DNA of 12,153 nt from a virus (lineage: Duplodnaviria; Heunggongvirae; Uroviricota; Caudoviricetes). Made by a program: the position numbers and the translations under genes. This document shows, one piece after another, positions 1,997-12,064 of this stretch (the first letter of the stretch is position 1; each line of letters begins with the position of its first letter). The notes beneath the pieces were generated by a model. The model saw only the letters and a list, made by a program, of their open reading frames with translations, had not been told where the DNA came from and ran no database searches. Location of the stretch: positions 1 through 12,153 of IMG/VR virus record IMGVR_UViG_2693429719_000002; one strand, written 5' to 3'.

Positions 1997-2380
1997 TCAA
2001 CCAATCAACTTATAGCGACCATCCCGCGCATTGCGACGTACACGCTCAATCTTGAGGCATAGCGCCGCATCTGGCTTTTTTGGGACAGGTACGCGGCAAT
2101 ATTCAGAAGCTCGAGGAATATTGTTTATCCAGTCGATCACTTCACTTAAATACCAGGCCTTACGCCCTTCCGTAACCTGTACGCGTTCGGGGAACTCTCC
2201 GCGAGCCTCAAGGTTTAGCAATGTGCGACGGCTAAGGGTAGTAAGTTCCATCACCTGATTCATATCAACAAGGCGTTCACTTAAACGCATTTTGTCAGCA
2301 ATAGCCTTTAATTCCTCTACTGCTGGATCCGGATACATCATTTCGGCAATTGGCTTAAGGTCATTGTAATGATTCTGCAT
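1997..2380 (-). CDS. AlpA-family helix-turn-helix protein with a ~40-aa N-terminal extension (second AlpA-like gene of the island)
   Basis: Contains MNQVMELTTLSRRTLLNLEARGEFPERVQVTEGRKAWYLSEVIDWI, typical of AlpA/excisionase-type HTH. GGGGG RBS 5 nt upstream of ATG; starts 11 nt after the decoration gene stop. Confidence 0.65.
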   Translation of the reverse strand: MQNHYNDLKPIAEMMYPDPAVEELKAIADKMRLSERLVDMNQVMELTTLSRRTLLNLEARGEFPERVQVTEGRKAWYLSEVIDWINNIPRASEYCRVPVPKKPDAALCLKIERVRRNARDGRYKLIG

Positions 2381-4952: not shown

Positions 4953-6758
4953 TTAATTTTTTCCATCGTCATTTGTGACCGATGTACATGATGGCATCCA
5001 GTCTTCTGAATCCTCTGTCAGGGTCACATTTGAACGCAAACCGTGCTTCGTTTTCCGTTTCATATACTCCCTGCCATATTCCGCCATTGCCCCCGGCATA
5101 TCTTTACCGAAGCGCGTCAGTGTTACAGGTTTACCGAATCCGTGTGCCCTCATATATGCCAGATAGGCGTGATAAAGATACCTGCGCGGACTGAACGGAA
5201 TAATTTCGGCATTACCCACTAACAGACCATCACACATTACCGACGACATGAGATAGCCGCAGAAGTCCACCAGCGAATCGCCCTCGCGTTTTATCACCAG
5301 AGCTTCTTCTGATTTCTGCTGCTCATACAGCAGGCGTTTAGCTTCGTCCTGGTCAGAAAAACGAGTAAGCAGGTGGCGAATCACAACCGCCAGCTCTCCT
5401 TCTATTTTTTCTGCCAGCATGGGGTCGCGTTCGTTTTCCGGTACAACCTCCGAAAAATTGAATATCACCCGACGACGTGAGATCCCCCCGCTGCGGTCAC
5501 TGAATGACATGGCGTTATTGTTCACCGCCAGCACGACCGCCTGAATGCGTGTTGAGTAGGGAGCTTTATGTTTCGGGTCAATTGCCACCTTGTCACCGCC
5601 TGTAATGGCCTTAATTCCTGCACCATCACCAGCGTAGCGGGTCATATCCGGCATGATAATCAGCGAAAAGCCAACCACTAACGCGCGTTCCCTGGCATCT
5701 TCCAGCGCCTTCATGCTTGCCGACACCGTGTTGGCCTTACCCGCCAGCATGGTGCAAATCTCCGCCATTACGCTTTTACCGCTTCCACCCGGCCCCGTTA
5801 CCTCAAGAAATAACTGCCAGTCGTATCGGTTCGCCAGCACCATGAATAACGCCGCCAGTACGCGATCCGCTTTACGGTCATTCTCTGCCACCGAACGGCG
5901 CAACCATTTCCAGAAATTCGGCGCATGCGTTGCCAGCGTTTCCCCCTCTGCTGGTGGGCTGAACGGTAATTCACTGGCAATTAACAGCCAGTCGTTTTTG
6001 TCATGCTCCCGAAAATCGCCTGTCCGGGTATCAAAAACACCGTTACTGAATCCAATCAGGTTACGGGCGGTATTTCCCATTACGGGCAAACTTAACTTCA
6101 TGGTATCGACCGCCGATTTGATGGCGTTCTGCGAATAACTGATCTCCGCATCAATAAAAATCTGCGCCATAGCCCGCTGTAACTCTTTATCCTGTACCGG
6201 CTCCCATACAACGCCGTTGTAGTGGTGAACTGTGTCAGAGTCCGCATTGATTGCCAGTTCACCGCCATAATGGGCCAGGAGAACTTCGCCGCGCTGGCTT
6301 GCTCCCATCTGGTTAAGCGCCAGTGGTGCGGCGCTGTCTTCTGTTTTTTTCTTAACAGGAAGCTGAATAACCAGACCATCAGAAAGATTCTGGCGCTCAC
6401 GCTCCAGATATTCGCGCCACTCCTCCCGCTTCTGGCTGTGCATTCCCTCAGGGTAATAATTCGCATCCCGTACACCTGCCGCCGCCAGCTTTTGCCCGAT
6501 GGCATTAATATTTGACGGCTTGATGTGGCCTGCCTTGTACAGCCGGACACAATAGCGACCATCGTCGATAATTTTCAGGTCTGCCAGTTCGTCAAGCTGG
6601 CTGTCTCCCAGCCATACAGGCGGAACATTGTCACCAGCAAGTCGCCCGTCCTGCTCCTGCCATTGTTTCGCGTGCGCCCAGGCATCACTACCCGCAAAAA
6701 TAATGACTTCGGTCATTTTGTCGTGCGGCTGTTTTTTTAAGTTCGGTGCCAGTTTCAT
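4953..6758 (-). CDS. Primase-helicase / replication initiator with P-loop NTPase domain
   Basis: 601-aa ORF with Walker A motif (EVTGPGGSGKSVMAEICTML) and an N-terminal primase-like region. Usual position for a satellite replication protein, followed by iterons. Confidence 0.85.
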   Translation of the reverse strand: MKLAPNLKKQPHDKMTEVIIFAGSDAWAHAKQWQEQDGRLAGDNVPPVWLGDSQLDELADLKIIDDGRYCVRLYKAGHIKPSNINAIGQKLAAAGVRDANYYPEGMHSQKREEWREYLERERQNLSDGLVIQLPVKKKTEDSAAPLALNQMGASQRGEVLLAHYGGELAINADSDTVHHYNGVVWEPVQDKELQRAMAQIFIDAEISYSQNAIKSAVDTMKLSLPVMGNTARNLIGFSNGVFDTRTGDFREHDKNDWLLIASELPFSPPAEGETLATHAPNFWKWLRRSVAENDRKADRVLAALFMVLANRYDWQLFLEVTGPGGSGKSVMAEICTMLAGKANTVSASMKALEDARERALVVGFSLIIMPDMTRYAGDGAGIKAITGGDKVAIDPKHKAPYSTRIQAVVLAVNNNAMSFSDRSGGISRRRVIFNFSEVVPENERDPMLAEKIEGELAVVIRHLLTRFSDQDEAKRLLYEQQKSEEALVIKREGDSLVDFCGYLMSSVMCDGLLVGNAEIIPFSPRRYLYHAYLAYMRAHGFGKPVTLTRFGKDMPGAMAEYGREYMKRKTKHGLRSNVTLTEDSEDWMPSCTSVTNDDGKN

Positions 6759-7294: not shown

Positions 7295-7529
7295 AATCGC
7301 CCCCACCATTTTCACAATCAACAATCAGGATGGCTTTAGCCTCATTCAGCGCCATATCAGCGGTAAGCTGCACATATGCCAGCGAATGCGGGATTATCGC
7401 CCCTGTATATTCCGGCTCTCTGGTAATGTGTTTTTCTGCGGTTGCTGCCGTGCATGAAATATCAATCAGCGCGTCCATCAGCGTTCTGATGGCTTCGCCT
7501 GCTGCGTCCGGCGTGTTTTTATTGCACAT
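7284..7529 (-). CDS. Hypothetical protein (81 aa)
   Basis: ORF in track; start overlaps the stop of the upstream 68-aa gene; GGGGG RBS upstream. Confidence 0.45.
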   Translation of the reverse strand: MCNKNTPDAAGEAIRTLMDALIDISCTAATAEKHITREPEYTGAIIPHSLAYVQLTADMALNEAKAILIVDCENGGGDYAK

Positions 7530-7725
7530 GGCGCACCCCCTGACGAATACGGGCGGCGAATACCATCACACAGCCATCAGGAGATTGCTGGCGTGCTTCC
7601 TGTTCGCTGGTGGCCTCGATGGTAATCACGCGCGGCTGTGCCGTGCTCAGGGCGATAAAACGCCAGATGTATTTATTCAGGTTGTACGAGTCCCGCCCTT
7701 GCGGGTGTGTGGTATGATTTAACAT
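7522..7725 (-). CDS. Hypothetical protein (68 aa), first gene of the leftward operon
   Basis: Corresponds to the last 68 codons of the 411-aa track ORF 7519..8754. ATG at 7725 has GAGG 5 nt upstream; the upstream part of that long ORF is judged spurious. Confidence 0.5.
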
Positions 7726-7823
7726 AGCTACCTCGATACTTCTGCTATCGTTGGTGGTTAGAAGCCCCGTTACTGCTCCTACAGTGCGGGGTTTCGTCGT
7801 TTCTGCACCTTGCATTAACAAGG

Positions 7824-7900
7824 TGTAAGTAACTTTATTTATAGGTGGCTTACATGTCAATGCTTTTATGTAAGACTTTTTATGTGTATATTGTCTTACA
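7824..7900. promoter_or_regulatory. Divergent promoter region with two ~31-bp operator-like elements (TGTAAG-N19-CTTACA)
   Basis: TGTAAG at 7824 and 7869, CTTACA at 7849 and 7895. A TTGACA -35 for the leftward operon (reverse complement of 7855..7860) abuts the first element. Confidence 0.5.
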
Positions 7901-7921
7901 CTTTCATTGAGAGGATTACAG

Positions 7922-8227
7922 ATGGCTACAGGTTCAAAAAACGCAAAATCACAATCACTGACAGCTCGGATCCCGCATGATGTTATTGAAGGCATGGAAT
8001 CCGTAAAACTGGACGGTGAAAGCAACGCCGGATTCATCGTAACCGCCATGCGCGGTGAAATCGCCCGCCGCCAGGCAGAAGGAAGCGGAGAAAACCTCCT
8101 GGTTTCTTCGCTCGATGCACTGGCGCAGGTGGAAAAAATCGGAGTCAAAGCAGCCGAGGAGATCGGGCAACTCATCACCGTCGCGCGTGAAGAACTCCAG
8201 CGTCGCAAGGCCAAAGAGCAGGAGTAA
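7922..8227 (+). CDS. Small regulatory protein, possibly ribbon-helix-helix type (101 aa)
   Basis: ATG at 7922 with GAGAGGA RBS 6 nt upstream. N-terminal SLTARIPHDVIEGMESV resembles an RHH strand-helix motif (weak, by eye). Sits next to the operator-like repeats. Confidence 0.5.
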   Translation: MATGSKNAKSQSLTARIPHDVIEGMESVKLDGESNAGFIVTAMRGEIARRQAEGSGENLLVSSLDALAQVEKIGVKAAEEIGQLITVAREELQRRKAKEQE

Positions 8228-8284: not shown

Positions 8285-8482
8285 ATGACTGACAAATCAT
8301 TAAAGAAATTATCCTCATCCAGGAAAAAACAACGCAAAAACGCGGTAAGCGAACAAGAACAGGAAAGATTCGCGCCATGTGCGTTTGTCCTTGAGAAGTT
8401 CCTTAACGAGTACAGGCGCACAAAAATGGGATCGCATACCTGGAAAACATCGCAGCATGGCGATGCTAAAGAGCAGGAATAG
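8285..8482 (+). CDS. Hypothetical small basic protein (65 aa)
   Basis: ORF in track; weak RBS. Its last residues and stop context duplicate those of the upstream gene (AKEQE). Confidence 0.35.
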   Translation: MTDKSLKKLSSSRKKQRKNAVSEQEQERFAPCAFVLEKFLNEYRRTKMGSHTWKTSQHGDAKEQE

Positions 8483-8585
8483 CCCACCAGCAAGCCAGCA
8501 CACTGATCACATTGCCAACCGGATGTAATCACGGCATAGTAATCAGCGCTCATGCGTTGGGGATAACGCGCAATTAGTGTTGAAG

Positions 8586-8613
8586 GGCCACCGTAGCGGG
8601 TGGCCTTTGTTTT
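8586..8613 (+). terminator. Rho-independent terminator (GGCCACC-GTAGC-GGGTGGCC + TTTGTTTT)
   Basis: GC-rich hairpin followed by a T-run, about 100 bp downstream of the plus-strand genes. Confidence 0.6.
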
Positions 8614-8666: not shown

Positions 8667-8740
8667 GCACTGATCCATTTTTTTCGCAGCAGGTTAATTG
8701 TTCGCAAGGGCGCTCCGGCAACGGGGCGCTTTTTGTTTTT
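8667..8740 (+). ncRNA. Candidate small RNA (~75 nt) between an extended -10 promoter and a strong terminator
   Basis: TGATATAAT at 8652..8660; terminator at 8710..8740; no ORF in the interval. Confidence 0.3.
8710..8740 (+). terminator. Rho-independent terminator (8-bp stem with GCAA loop + TTTTTGTTTTT)
   Basis: GCGCTCCG-GCAA-CGGGGCGC followed by an 11-nt T-rich run. Confidence 0.65.
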
Positions 8741-8898: not shown

Positions 8899-9477
8899 TT
8901 ACTGAATACGCTCACCAAAGTAAAACTCAGGCTGATATTCACGTATCAGCCTTTTTTCTTCTTCCTCCAGCTCACGCTTTTTGCGCTTACATGCCTGTAG
9001 CTCCCTCCCCTTCTCGCTGGCACTTATCCGGTATTGCTCTTTGCGGCGGGAAAAATCCTGTAATGCGCCCCACGGGATACCATAAGCCCCCGTTTTTCTG
9101 ATACCCGGTATCACATTTCTGAATACCCAATTACTGAAACTATGAGCAAATGTGCCAGGCGTCATTGCTTTGCGGCTACGGGCTATTAGTTTGTAGAAAC
9201 CTGACTCAGAGATAATGCTCATATTCTGATTTCCTCCGGGGGTGTAAGTTAAATTTACTCCCTTTTCATCATCATCAAGCATCTGCAACGCCGTACGCGA
9301 ATTGGTCAGTTCCAGCGCAGCGCAGACATCCTTTGCAACAAACCACGGATCGCCGTTCAGATACACCACGCGAACGTTCACACCATCAAAGCGCAGAACG
9401 ACGAGATCACGAATATCGCAGAATTTTTTCACTGGACGAGCGTACCCCTTGCCCGTCACGGCAATATTTTTATTCAT
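8899..9477 (-). CDS. Bro-N domain protein (putative antirepressor-like)
   Basis: Bro-N signature read by eye: VRVVYLNGDPWFVAKDVCAALEL...SESGFYKLIARSRKAM...FSNWVFRNVIPGIRKTGAY. Confidence 0.8.
   Translation of the reverse strand: MNKNIAVTGKGYARPVKKFCDIRDLVVLRFDGVNVRVVYLNGDPWFVAKDVCAALELTNSRTALQMLDDDEKGVNLTYTPGGNQNMSIISESGFYKLIARSRKAMTPGTFAHSFSNWVFRNVIPGIRKTGAYGIPWGALQDFSRRKEQYRISASEKGRELQACKRKKRELEEEEKRLIREYQPEFYFGERIQ
8929..8958 (+). terminator. Plus-strand hairpin + T6 inside the 3' end of the Bro-N coding region (antisense)
   Basis: AGGCTGATA-TTCACG-TATCAGCCT followed by TTTTTT; a TATAAT at 8878..8883 lies upstream. Confidence 0.4.
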
Positions 9478-9494: not shown

Positions 9495-9520
9495 GACAAA
9501 AAACCCCTCGTAATGAGGGG
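9495..9520 (-). terminator. Rho-independent terminator downstream of alpA (CCCCTC-ATTAC-GAGGGG + TTTTTTG on the minus strand)
   Basis: Hairpin and U-tract begin 14 nt after the alpA stop. Confidence 0.6.
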
Positions 9521-9533
9521 CGTTATTTACTGG

Positions 9534-9791
9534 TTATTGCTGTTTTGTTTTTCCAGGTTTCCATCCAGGATGCCACTCACCACGGATCCACGCCTGAACC
9601 TCTGAAAGTCGATAGCCTGCCGCACGTTCGCCGATCTTGATACGTCGCGGGAATTTACCTGCCTGCTCCATTTTCCAGCGTGTTGAGTTTGCCAGCGTGG
9701 TAAGTGCTATGCATTCTTTTTCACGAATGAACCGATCAATGTCCTTCATTGCGCGCAAATCGTTTTCATCCACAAGAGAATAAATTGTCAT
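9534..9791 (-). CDS. alpA: AlpA-family transcriptional regulator / excisionase-like protein
   Basis: 85-aa HTH protein directly downstream of int (start 1 nt after the int stop); GAGGTGG RBS. Confidence 0.8.
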   Translation of the reverse strand: MTIYSLVDENDLRAMKDIDRFIREKECIALTTLANSTRWKMEQAGKFPRRIKIGERAAGYRLSEVQAWIRGEWHPGWKPGKTKQQ

Positions 9792-9792
9792 A

Positions 9793-11034
9793 TCACACCA
9801 CCTCTTTATTAAGCTCGATAACGTTGTTGTTAAATCCTGCTATCGTATTAAGGTAATTAACCCACATATTAAGCACCTCAAGTTTTTTCTTTATATGCCT
9901 GCTTTTATTGTAAACACCAGCAACCCCTTTCACTTTATGACCCAAAAGAAGTTCGACAATATAAGGATCCGCCCCCATATCATTAAGCATTGTGGAAAAT
10001 GTGCGCCTGAAATCATGTATGCACCACAAGCCATTAGTATCATGACCAAGACGCCTGCATATTCTGTTTGCAGCCCCTGTTATTGTCGCCCTTTGCAAAG
10101 CACAACCGACAACATAACCGCGATTCTTTGTTTCTGCGTAAAGATTAACGATCCATTGTTTTATACCGTCAGGAACGGGCCTTACTATGGCCTCACCGTT
10201 TTTGCTGTGCTCTTTTGGGACTGTCCATACCCAGTTTTTTAAATCCCATTCTTCCCAGGTGGATAACCTCGCCTCCTGCTGTCGACAACCAAACGCCAGG
10301 CATATCACCATAATTCTTCGGTTATGTATCGATGAGAGAGTAAGCAAATTATTTCCATAAGCATACGACCATACATCAGCAGTTTCATTGATGCTAAGAA
10401 CGCGATCCCGTATACCGGACGAGCGGCCTACATAACTTACATTAATGTCTCCAAATGGATCGCAAGCGATATATTGCCTGACGCGACAAAACCGCAACGC
10501 CTGTTTAATATCAAGAAAAATTGCACCAGACATAACAGGCGCATTTTTTTTAATCCTGTCAAAGACGGTAAGCCATGTGTGTAATTTGCACTGTTCTATG
10601 GCCATATCGCCGATATAGGGGAATATATGCTTTTCAAATCGTTTTATTAAATATTCATGCTCTTTTCTGGCTGTTGTGGCGTGATTGTCGTACCAGTAAA
10701 ACAGCGCATCCCTTACGGTCACTGGTTGCATAGTTTTTTCGGCAGCAAGTTTTATTTGCCTGCGGGGGTCCAGATTTTCAGCCAGCCATTCACGGCACTG
10801 ATCACGCATGCGCCTGGCAGTTGCAAGAGACATGTCAGGATAGCGACCAAGTGTAAGCCATACCGGAGGGGATTTCCTGCCACCAAGACGATAGTAAAAA
10901 ACAAAGCTTATCCCCCCGACCATGCTTACACGCACAGACAGCCCGCGACCATCCGCTATTGTTTTTTGTTTGTCCTGTCGTTTTCCGGCAAGACTCTTTA
11001 ACAGTTTGTCGCTGAGTTTGTTTTCAATAGCCAT
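9793..11034 (-). CDS. int: Tyrosine-type site-specific integrase (P4-like)
   Basis: 413 aa; C-terminal catalytic motifs HDFRRTF ... LLGHKVKGVAGVYNKS (H-x-x-R ... Y); sits next to the element end. Confidence 0.95.
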   Translation of the reverse strand: MAIENKLSDKLLKSLAGKRQDKQKTIADGRGLSVRVSMVGGISFVFYYRLGGRKSPPVWLTLGRYPDMSLATARRMRDQCREWLAENLDPRRQIKLAAEKTMQPVTVRDALFYWYDNHATTARKEHEYLIKRFEKHIFPYIGDMAIEQCKLHTWLTVFDRIKKNAPVMSGAIFLDIKQALRFCRVRQYIACDPFGDINVSYVGRSSGIRDRVLSINETADVWSYAYGNNLLTLSSIHNRRIMVICLAFGCRQQEARLSTWEEWDLKNWVWTVPKEHSKNGEAIVRPVPDGIKQWIVNLYAETKNRGYVVGCALQRATITGAANRICRRLGHDTNGLWCIHDFRRTFSTMLNDMGADPYIVELLLGHKVKGVAGVYNKSRHIKKKLEVLNMWVNYLNTIAGFNNNVIELNKEVV

Positions 11035-11052
11035 TAACAGCCCTCAAGAGAT

Positions 11053-11106
11053 TTGCAATACACACCCATCCCGATCGCCAATTTGCAATACACATTGCAA
11101 TACACA
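11053..11106 (+). repeat. Three TTGCAATACACA repeats between int and attR, putative arm-type integrase sites / int promoter region
   Basis: Copies at 11053, 11083 and 11095; the last two form the same 22-mer found at 389..410. Confidence 0.5.
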
Positions 11107-11182: not shown

Positions 11183-12064
11183 TTAGTGGAGTTGGCGAAC
11201 GATGCGGACAACTACGGTGAGATGATAGACATAAATCGCCTTCACAATGGCGCTCTGCAGCTGCGTGTTCTGCAGCGTGTCGAGCATCTTCATCTGCTCC
11301 ATCACGCTGTAAAACACATTTGCACCGCGGGTCTGCCCGTCCTCCACGGGTTCAAAAACGTGAATGAACGAGGTGCGCCCGCCGGGTAACTCACGGGGCA
11401 TCCATGTCCATTTCTGCGGCATCCAGCCAGGATACCCGTCCTCGCTGACGTAATATCCCAGCGCCGCGCCGCTGTCATTAATCTGCACACCGGCACGGCA
11501 GTTCCGGCTGTCGCCGGTATTGTTCGGGTTGCTGATACGCTTCGGGCTGACCATCCGGAACTGTGTCCGGAACAGTCGCGAGGGACTGGTATCCCAGGTG
11601 GCCTGAACGAACAGTTCACCGTTAAAGGCGTGCATGGCCACACCTTCCCGAATCATCATGGTAAACGTGCGTTTTCGCTCAACGTCAATGCAGCAGCAGT
11701 CATCCTCGGCAAACTCTTTCCATGCCGCTTCAACCTCGCGGGAAAAGGCACGGGCTTCTTCCTCCCCGATGCCCAGATAGCGCCAGCTTGGGCGATGACT
11801 GAGCCGGAAAAAAGATCCGACGATATGATCCTGATGCAGCTGGATGGCGTTGGCGGCATAGCCGTTATTGCGTACCAGATCGTCTGCGCGGGCATTGCCA
11901 CGGGTAAAGTTGGGCAACAGGGCTGCATCCACACTTTCACCCGGTGGGTTCCACGCCCGCAACTGCCCTCCAAATCCGCTGCCACCGCCGTGATAACCGG
12001 CATATTCGCGCAGCGATGTCATGCCGTCCGGCCCCAGAAGGGTGGGAATGGTGGACGTTTTCAT
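11183..12064 (-). CDS. B: Lambda-type portal protein, N-terminal portion; ends in 17 element-derived codons after ...SAIVKA
   Basis: 293-aa ORF starting [34 protein letters not shown], near-identical to remembered lambda gpB. Homology stops at the core, then reads [17 protein letters not shown] and terminates. Confidence 0.9.
11230..11242. other. attR junction: core ATCGCCTT (11235..11242) within CATAAATCGCCTT
   Basis: Direct repeat of 302..314 with one mismatch at the fifth base. Confidence 0.7.

Follow-up and report, generated by a model that had tools for sequence, protein, structure and literature searches.

Four short operator-like sites, designated O1 to O4, lie in the divergent control region of a phage satellite, and the data presented below argue that they are bound by dimers of the adjacent 101-aa protein, for which a ribbon-helix-helix fold is predicted. 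Bound in this way, the protein would repress the leftward operon of the satellite at its promoter, P-left, and would autoregulate its own promoter, P-right. A probability of roughly 0.7 is assigned to this reading, which derives from sequence comparison and structure prediction. The window referred to throughout is the whole 12,153-nt stretch of DNA that was analysed; its relevant features are collected in Table 1.

Table 1. Features of the satellite and its control region, with coordinates in the window
Feature	Position	Strand or orientation	Remarks
D5/P4-type primase-helicase	4953-6758	leftward	Pfam D5_N/DUF5906/Pox_D5
68-aa Icd-like protein	7519-7725	minus	gene 1 of leftward operon; NCBIfam NF033153, 70.3 bits; PHROG 6196; RefSeq annotation in relatives
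Extended -10-like box, TGgTATGAT	7710-7718	plus	inside 5' end of icd-like ORF; candidate antisense promoter
Conserved hairpin	7761-7795	plus	U-rich tail to about 7806; proposed terminator of ~80-nt RNA
Operator-like site O1, GTGTAAGTAAC	7823-7833	reverse	reverse complement fits GTT-ACTT-ACAC; about -8..+3 of P-left
P-left	7832-7860	minus	-35 TTGACA 7860-7855, 17-bp spacer, -10 TAAAGT 7837-7832; predicted start near 7825
Operator-like site O2, GTGGCTTACAT	7845-7855		spacer beside P-left -35; about -30..-20
Operator-like site O3, ATGTAAGACTT	7868-7878	reverse	about -31..-21 of P-right
Putative P-right -10, TATATT	7887-7892	plus	read by eye; poor -35; predicted start near 7899
Operator-like site O4, TTGTCTTACAC	7891-7901		about -8..+3 of P-right
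101-aa YlcI/YnfO-family protein	7922-8227	plus	proposed repressor
65-aa basic ORF	8285-8482	plus	PHROG 21027 (function unknown); no Pfam/PADLOC match; facultative passenger
Two strong intrinsic terminators	8583-8608, 8706-8733	plus	end of rightward unit
Bro-N protein	8899-9477	leftward	Pfam
AlpA	9534-9791	leftward	Pfam
Integrase	9793-11034	leftward	Pfam

Identity and layout of the satellite

The satellite in the window is a Gram-negative PICI of the helper-embedded type. At its right end, about 280 N-terminal codons of a portal gene (11183-12064, minus strand) match positions 2-242 of Phage_portal_2, and the portal reading frame, as read by eye, resumes at the left end (1 to ~310, minus strand). 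Since both ends of the window are halves of a lambda-family portal gene, the island can be assigned to the helper-embedded PICIs that PMC10111431 describes. It is inserted within a late gene of a lambdoid prophage, at a position that corresponds to the published site B:Phage_portal_2:241 (PMC10111431). The genes of the island display the organization of Gram-negative PICIs (PMC6092414, PMC10111431), viz. int and alpA, a Bro zone, a replication zone with primase and SSB and a late zone, co-oriented over about 11 kb and in the gene order of EcCICFT073. Pfam matches were obtained for integrase, AlpA, Bro-N, D5_N/DUF5906/Pox_D5, SSB, Phage_cap_E, HDPD and Nu1.

The layout proposed in a first-pass annotation of this DNA, in which a leftward operon diverges from a small rightward regulator gene, was found to be correct. 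The Icd-like gene that opens the operon is followed by small ORFs, DUF4222 and the primase-helicase gene, and then, in order, by genes for SSB, a lambda-E-type capsid protein, a lambda-D-type decoration protein, a second AlpA-like protein and a Nu1-type small terminase. Rightward orientation is confined to the gene for the 101-aa protein and the 65-aa ORF. The latter, co-oriented with the regulator gene, contains the motif ERFAPCAF and is present in 36 of 107 related loci, EcCICFT073 included.

Several further sequences were observed in the island. A direct repeat, roughly CATA[A/C]ATCGCCTT, is situated at both island junctions, near 303-316 and 11231-11244. Repeats of TTGCAATACACA, in three copies beside int (11052-11105) and two at the opposite island end (~385-410), look like integrase arm-type binding sites. 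Five TGTCAC (GTCAC) repeats with a spacing of ~10-11 bp, found at 648-700 at the left end of the island, just 3' of the last ORF, may be cos/TerS-binding or recombination-directionality sites. The second AlpA-like protein, an AlpA/MerR-like winged-helix protein of 127 aa (1997-2380, minus strand) encoded between the decoration and small terminase genes, recalls, by position and fold class alone, the Rpp packaging-redirection proteins of EcCICFT073 (PMC6739421).

Four operator-like sites in the divergent control region

The control region had been described as holding two 31-bp TGTAAG-N19-CTTACA elements that overlap a TTGACA -35 hexamer. When the window was searched for TGTAAG-N(15-25)-CTTACA, exactly two matches were found. 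The first, at 7824-7854, is as described (N19, 31 bp), but the second, at 7869-7900, has an N20 spacer and a length of 32 bp. The TTGACA hexamer is real; it is on the minus strand, however, and abuts the right arm of the first element without overlapping it.

It is apparent that the repeats are real and are not the product of chance. Shuffled sequences contained a mean of 0.01 matches to the same pattern, and two matches were reached in 1 of 200 shuffles. Moreover, of the ten TGTAAG hexamers that the window contains, four are packed into 77 bp (7824-7900), a length in which ~0.03 would be expected from the shuffle mean of 4.59 per window (Poisson P(>=4) ~3e-8).

The arms of the repeats extend to RTGTAAG/CTTACAY, each TGTAAG in the window having a purine on its 5' side. 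The two inner arms can equally be paired as an everted repeat, CTTACAT-N12-ATGTAAG (7849-7875), and the description as two elements is therefore just one among several readings. The repeats are better read as four sites of ~11 bp in the frame GTG-N4-ACAY, about 22-23 bp apart. In this 11-mer frame, the distances from O1 to O2, O2 to O3 and O3 to O4 in the window are 22, 23 and 23 bp. Among the relatives described below, classes with direct repeats (xKNx and the EcCICFT073 class) show an unambiguous 23-bp period, while in the MTTV class O1 sits about 10 bp further out, i.e. one helical turn, so that helical phase is kept. Because 23 bp amounts to 2.2 helical turns, adjacent sites are not exactly on one face of the DNA. 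Thus, comparison supports the operator-like character claimed for the elements, but it favours a geometry of four sites spaced by ~23 bp over one of two 31-bp palindromes.

Additional candidates for sites were considered and rejected. Further copies of RTGTAAG, at 1743, 8986, 9242, 10436, 10851 and 10925, are all within genes; they are isolated, each without a partner at ~23 bp, and are probably chance occurrences. A possible fifth site, CTGCACC (7807-7816), ~22 bp to the left of O1, is weak and does not clearly track the class of the locus, and was not counted.

The YlcI/YnfO-family protein and its predicted fold

The 101-aa protein belongs to the YlcI/YnfO family. Its residues 9-50 score 70.8 bits against NCBIfam NF041551 (cut-off 30), it matches PHROG 6522 with an E value of 1.9e-57 (family PHROG 6522/949), and its relatives are called YlcI/YnfO family protein in RefSeq. 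Literature searches on YlcI/YnfO/DUF3950, on a PICI repressor and on EcCICFT073 returned no description of the regulator and no functional paper on the family. The 'repressor' of EcCIMP1 is an unrelated PerC/ANR-like protein.

In the AlphaFold model, an extended N-terminus is followed by helices at residues 19-28 and 35-53 and by a long C-terminal helix at 59-100. The N-terminal 55 residues model as a ribbon-helix-helix fold, in which a strand at about residues 10-17 and the first two helices form, over about 45 residues, the strand-helix-helix topology of MetJ/Arc/CopG proteins. Sequence motifs of such proteins were also recognized. The strand, K9-S-Q-S-L-T-A-R16-I-P18, alternates polar and hydrophobic residues and ends in Arg-h-Pro, R16 and P18 being invariant, and G32-E33-S34, with an invariant E33, corresponds to the G-x-S/T/N turn before helix 2. 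An hhalign comparison gave E values of 0.01 with Arc and 0.14 with Mnt, and placed xSxLxTxAxRIP on QFNLRWP of Arc, with residues 12, 14 and 16 on Gln9, Asn11 and Arg13. These are the base-contacting residues of Arc; those of Mnt are His6, Asn8 and Arg10.

No curated ribbon-helix-helix family was matched by sequence. Pfam yielded no family at E<0.1 for the 101-aa protein, matches to PSK_trans_fac were all below threshold (25 of 33 family members, best E value 0.001), and a PDB profile search with the 101-aa protein gave no ribbon-helix-helix match. Comparison of the full-length model with the PDB by Foldseek returned noise only, a tblastn search of 50,697 phage records with the protein gave no match and PADLOC no defence family. 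A borderline PDB profile match was obtained between residues 45-86 and the Hef helix-hairpin-helix (1x2i, E value 0.006), in a segment that AlphaFold draws as one helix. The match covers the motif LxxLxxVExIGxKAxEEI, with an invariant Gly74, which was observed in residues ~59-101 (8096-8224). The version of the protein in EcCICFT073 has 59 aa; an in-frame deletion has removed exactly the part at residues ~59-101, and with it the C-terminal helix.

Co-variation of site cores and strand residues

A total of 117 loci were compared, from complete E. coli genomes, the genomes of 19 species (20 loci, 19 usable), exact-protein look-ups and 80 IMG/VR contigs. Among the complete E. coli genomes, a 1-kb query including the Icd-like gene found a match, at least partial, in 1,509 of 5,426.

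Residues 12-15 are a hot spot of variation within an otherwise conserved domain, and across the 117 loci the core of the sites switches together with these residues at all four sites. At least nine classes were distinguished. The core CTTACA accompanies SLTA/SVTA strands (34 loci), the class of the window, in which the core reads CTTACAY; GAAACAC accompanies LTTV (52 loci) and GAATCAC accompanies QISI (9 loci, in two lineages). The remaining pairs are GAAATAC with MTTV, GATATAC with MTTI, GAATCCC or GAATACC with QxNA, TTGCAC with ALAA, GTGGCCCAC with ALKA, and GTGTGTAT or GTGTGCAT with xKNx.

Within the SLTA/SVTA class, the loci of Escherichia, Enterobacter, Klebsiella, Edwardsiella, Pectobacterium and Serratia have kept the four cores and the promoter hexamers, while the spacers drift. 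At O1, AAGGTGTAaGTA is invariant or nearly so in the loci from these six genera, and class-specific cores take its place in other classes. At O2, the frame GTG-N4-ACAY directly precedes GTCAA in most classes, with N4 being class-specific. In several classes O3 is weaker and more degenerate than the other three sites.

Together with the first 25 codons of the regulator gene, the operators form one contiguous stretch of about 175 bp. Between the window and a related locus (L002), identity is 92-95% in the flanks, 65% in the operator block and 73% in codons 1-25, and in residues 1-53 the two proteins differ only by G4T, S5N, S12L, L13T, A15V, I17V and I22M. Since operators and first codons travel in one recombination event, the association of classes does not, of course, by itself demonstrate an interaction. 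Linkage nevertheless leaves unexplained why all sites within a cassette change in concert and why the differences between the proteins cluster in the strand predicted to read the DNA.

Promoters and terminators of the control region

P-left is the only strong sigma-70-like site of the region, with 10 of 12 matches in the promoter scan; its GTCAA and the TTAT of its -10 are invariant in an alignment of relatives and largely kept across classes. P-right was placed by inspection, since the absence of a match to a -35 hexamer left it uncalled in the scan; the block TGTGTATAnTG that holds its -10 is conserved in most classes. Measured from the predicted starts, O2 occupies about -30..-20 and O1 about -8..+3 at P-left, and O3 and O4 take mirror positions at the putative P-right. 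At each of the two divergent promoters, the sites would thus overlie both the spacer and position +1, an arrangement that fits repression of the left operon together with autoregulation.

On the minus strand, a strong terminator (9503-9521) was observed directly 3' of alpA and before the Bro-N gene. The terminator scan found none on that strand between the Bro-N gene and P-left, and read-through into the leftward operon is therefore conceivable.

A candidate antisense RNA at the icd-like leader

Strong conservation marks the leader that separates P-left from the icd-like start codon, and the properties of this leader suggest a plus-strand RNA of ~80 nt, cis-antisense to the leader, the ribosome-binding site and the start codon of the icd-like gene. 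Such an RNA, beside the operators, would be a further layer of control that the first-pass annotation had not noticed. The plus strand of 7725-7812, as a single sequence, folds with -35.9 kcal/mol (z -5.2), and the consensus fold over 24 loci reaches -18.6 kcal/mol on the plus strand versus -9.3 kcal/mol on the minus strand. The hairpin consensus contains 8 pairs supported by compensatory changes and many G-U pairs, which would be A-C if read from the opposite strand. As for a promoter, TGnTA(T/C)GAT or TGGTATAAT is found in E. coli-type loci at the place of the extended -10-like box; because the box overlaps conserved HTT(H) codons, its conservation is ambiguous. No Rfam family was matched when the whole window was searched at gathering score or when 7400-8000 was searched at E<=1, and the leader is therefore not a recognizable C4, IsrK or sar RNA.

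The proposed switch and the role of AlpA

It is proposed that dimers of the 101-aa protein bind O1 to O4 within the control region (7823-7901), each dimer inserting its two-stranded ribbon-helix-helix sheet into the major groove. Residues 12 and 14 of the strand, with their neighbours 13 and 15, would read the variable N4 core and the invariant Arg16 would read the constant flank, while the long C-terminal helix would probably join dimers on neighbouring sites and so make binding cooperative. Occupancy of O2 and O1 would shut off P-left, which would drive the operon of icd-like, primase, SSB, capsid, decoration and TerS genes, and occupancy of O3 and O4 would autoregulate P-right. The prototype EcCICFT073 carries the same module, with a degenerate O3, a degenerate O4 and the 59-aa protein; given the degenerate O3 and the absence of the C-terminal helix from that protein, the proposed bridging of dimers would not be a general feature.

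In EcCICFT073, AlpA is the published activator, required for induction, the over-expression of which alone induces replication; helper phages induce alpA, and a global repressor was called 'unclear' (PMC6092414). As AlpA over-expression is sufficient in that element (PMC6092414), the putative repressor cannot be the sole or top-level control. The suggestions of the first-pass annotation that the region is the master switch of the island, and the point of action of a helper-encoded inducer, have the standing of hypotheses. This raises an alternative that is unlikely but has to be weighed seriously, namely that the 101-aa protein binds the sites only as a local autoregulator or fine-tuner, the on/off state being set by AlpA, which activates its own expression and responds to the helper, by transcription that runs on from the alpA/Bro side, and by the candidate antisense RNA over the icd-like ribosome-binding site. 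The requirement for AlpA and its sufficiency in an element that possesses the same module are consistent with this, as are the truncated protein and degenerate O3 and O4 of EcCICFT073, the conservation of a structured plus-strand RNA element beside the operators, and the location of the minus-strand terminator after alpA with none found between the Bro gene and P-left. On the other hand, O1 and O2 are situated on the core of P-left in every class, and their conservation exceeds that of O3; this speaks for control of the left operon in addition to the protein's own gene. The upkeep of many specificity classes, in addition, suggests selection for immunity-like discrimination.

Candidate binders of the sites

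The adjacent protein, presumed to be the binder in the first-pass annotation, is by far the best candidate, a view backed by the fold model, by the co-variation of core and strand and by the uncoupled behaviour of other candidates. From the co-variation, the position of the sites over promoter elements and the exclusion of AlpA, the Icd-like protein and the replication proteins, we strongly infer that the 101-aa protein binds the sites and represses.

It is very improbable that the binder is instead AlpA, the Icd-like protein, a Bro-zone protein, a replication initiator (the repeats then being iterons) or a host factor. The Icd-like family is labelled 'transcriptional repressor' in PHROG 6196 and 1743, but its sequences are uncoupled from operator class: they are near-identical in four E. 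coli loci with three different cores (the window, L002, a further relative, L003, and CFT073), whereas SLTA loci from other genera have strongly divergent versions. As a DNA-binding protein, AlpA is known to regulate such islands (PMC6092414); it too is uncoupled, however, since loci of three operator classes have AlpA sequences of 95-97% identity, and two loci whose operators are identical have AlpA sequences of only 42% identity. Although repeated sites near replication genes can be iterons, three different replication proteins (of the DUF927, RepA-helicase and primase families) were found with the LTTV operator, and the sites are therefore not iterons. Bro-zone genes are missing from several loci with the same operators, and a host factor would not need some ten different cores within one species.

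Marginally less probable still is a type II toxin-antitoxin system, with the 101-aa protein as antitoxin, the 65-aa basic ORF as toxin and the repeats as autoregulatory operator. The order of the genes, regulator then small ORF, and the inverted repeats over the regulator's own promoter would fit such a system, but half of the sites are on the opposite promoter and a gap of 57 bp separates the two genes. A conserved adjacent cognate toxin was not found: only 36 of the 107 loci with enough flank carry the 65-aa ORF, and it matches no toxin or defence family, which argues against this interpretation. Finally, the notion that the repeats are a chance feature of the promoter region, without function of their own, might appeal to the AT-richness of the region and the shortness of the hexamers, but it is effectively refuted by the shuffle statistics, the retention of cores amid drifting spacers in six genera and the concerted replacement of all four sites between classes.

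Comparison with known systems

In the immI region of phage P22, the Mnt repressor (with Arc) and the sar antisense RNA operate, Mnt acting at Pant/Pmnt. The module described here resembles that system in several respects. Like Mnt, the protein would be a small ribbon-helix-helix repressor with a C-terminal helical oligomerization tail, oligomerization being putative in the present case, and its strand motif, x-h-x-h-R-h-P-x-E/D-V, aligns with those of Arc and Mnt. As in immI, the gene for the putative repressor is divergent from the controlled operon and would be autoregulated, with operators over back-to-back promoters, and the candidate antisense RNA, like sar, would cover the ribosome-binding site of the first controlled gene. 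It differs in that there is no significant sequence similarity to Arc or Mnt (E 0.01-0.14), four sites with a 23-bp period take the place of P22's single 17-21-bp operator, and the operon under putative control consists of satellite icd-like, replication and capsid genes rather than arc-ant.

Arrays of short sites are known from other ribbon-helix-helix proteins. NikR recognizes a pair of hexamer half-sites separated by some two turns of the helix (GTATGA-N16-TCATAC), each occupied by one dimer, and omega of pSM19035 binds arrays whose short units work as direct or as inverted repeats. The spacing observed here is like that of the NikR half-sites, and the freedom of orientation, with direct repeats in the xKNx and ALKA classes where others use inverted ones, is like that of omega. 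Unlike NikR, the 101-aa protein has no metal-binding domain, and unlike omega heptads, the units are not contiguous; a 23-bp period and a four-site array over two promoters are specific to the YlcI/YnfO family.

Stl of the SaPIs and Rpr of the Gram-positive PICIs are of the helix-turn-helix type; they are not described as ribbon-helix-helix proteins, the fold predicted here. The similarity is one of arrangement. In both cases the regulator gene is divergent from the satellite replication and packaging operon (PMC6092414) and lies between the int side and the replication side, and sequence-variable alleles suggest control that is specific to the element. For Stl/Rpr, derepression by helper proteins has been demonstrated (PMC6092414). 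In the present case, by contrast, AlpA is the documented activator, and in this island int and alpA point the same way as the operon.

Immunity systems based on RNA offer a further parallel. As in P1 immI (c4 RNA-icd-ant) and with the CI immunity RNA of P4, the controlled operon opens with an icd-like gene, at the leader of which a small structured RNA is predicted, and RNAs of the C4/IsrK type are reported from some Gram-negative PICIs (PMC10111431). The leader differs from P1 c4, P4 CI and IsrK in giving no Rfam C4 or isrK match, even at E<=1 in 7400-8000. Since the conserved structure is on the opposite strand, the RNA would be cis-antisense, whereas those of P1 and P4 are processed from the leader; a proposed protein repressor with operator-like sites is present in addition.

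Significance

These results identify a candidate repressor switch from an uncharacterized family, in satellites for which no repressor was described in the literature searched; the kind of switch, a ribbon-helix-helix repressor with its operators, is a known one. A more far-reaching proposal is put forward tentatively, and is on balance doubtful: the YlcI/YnfO protein may be the missing master repressor of Gram-negative PICIs, the counterpart of Stl, with at least nine hetero-immune classes set by two to four strand residues and with a cis-antisense RNA. Induction by a helper would then inactivate or bypass it, whether directly, via an antirepressor of the Bro/Ant type or by AlpA-driven read-through.

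Were the 101-aa protein to repress the replication and packaging operon, it would supply the missing quiescence factor of these satellites and a function for the uncharacterized YlcI/YnfO (DUF3950) family. The pairing of strand residues 12-15 with a 4-bp core would then constitute a compact natural specificity code, reusable for orthogonal repressors. The module of protein and operators, the reach of which extends to the prototype EcCICFT073, offers a tangible point of entry to the question of how such satellites are induced by their helpers.
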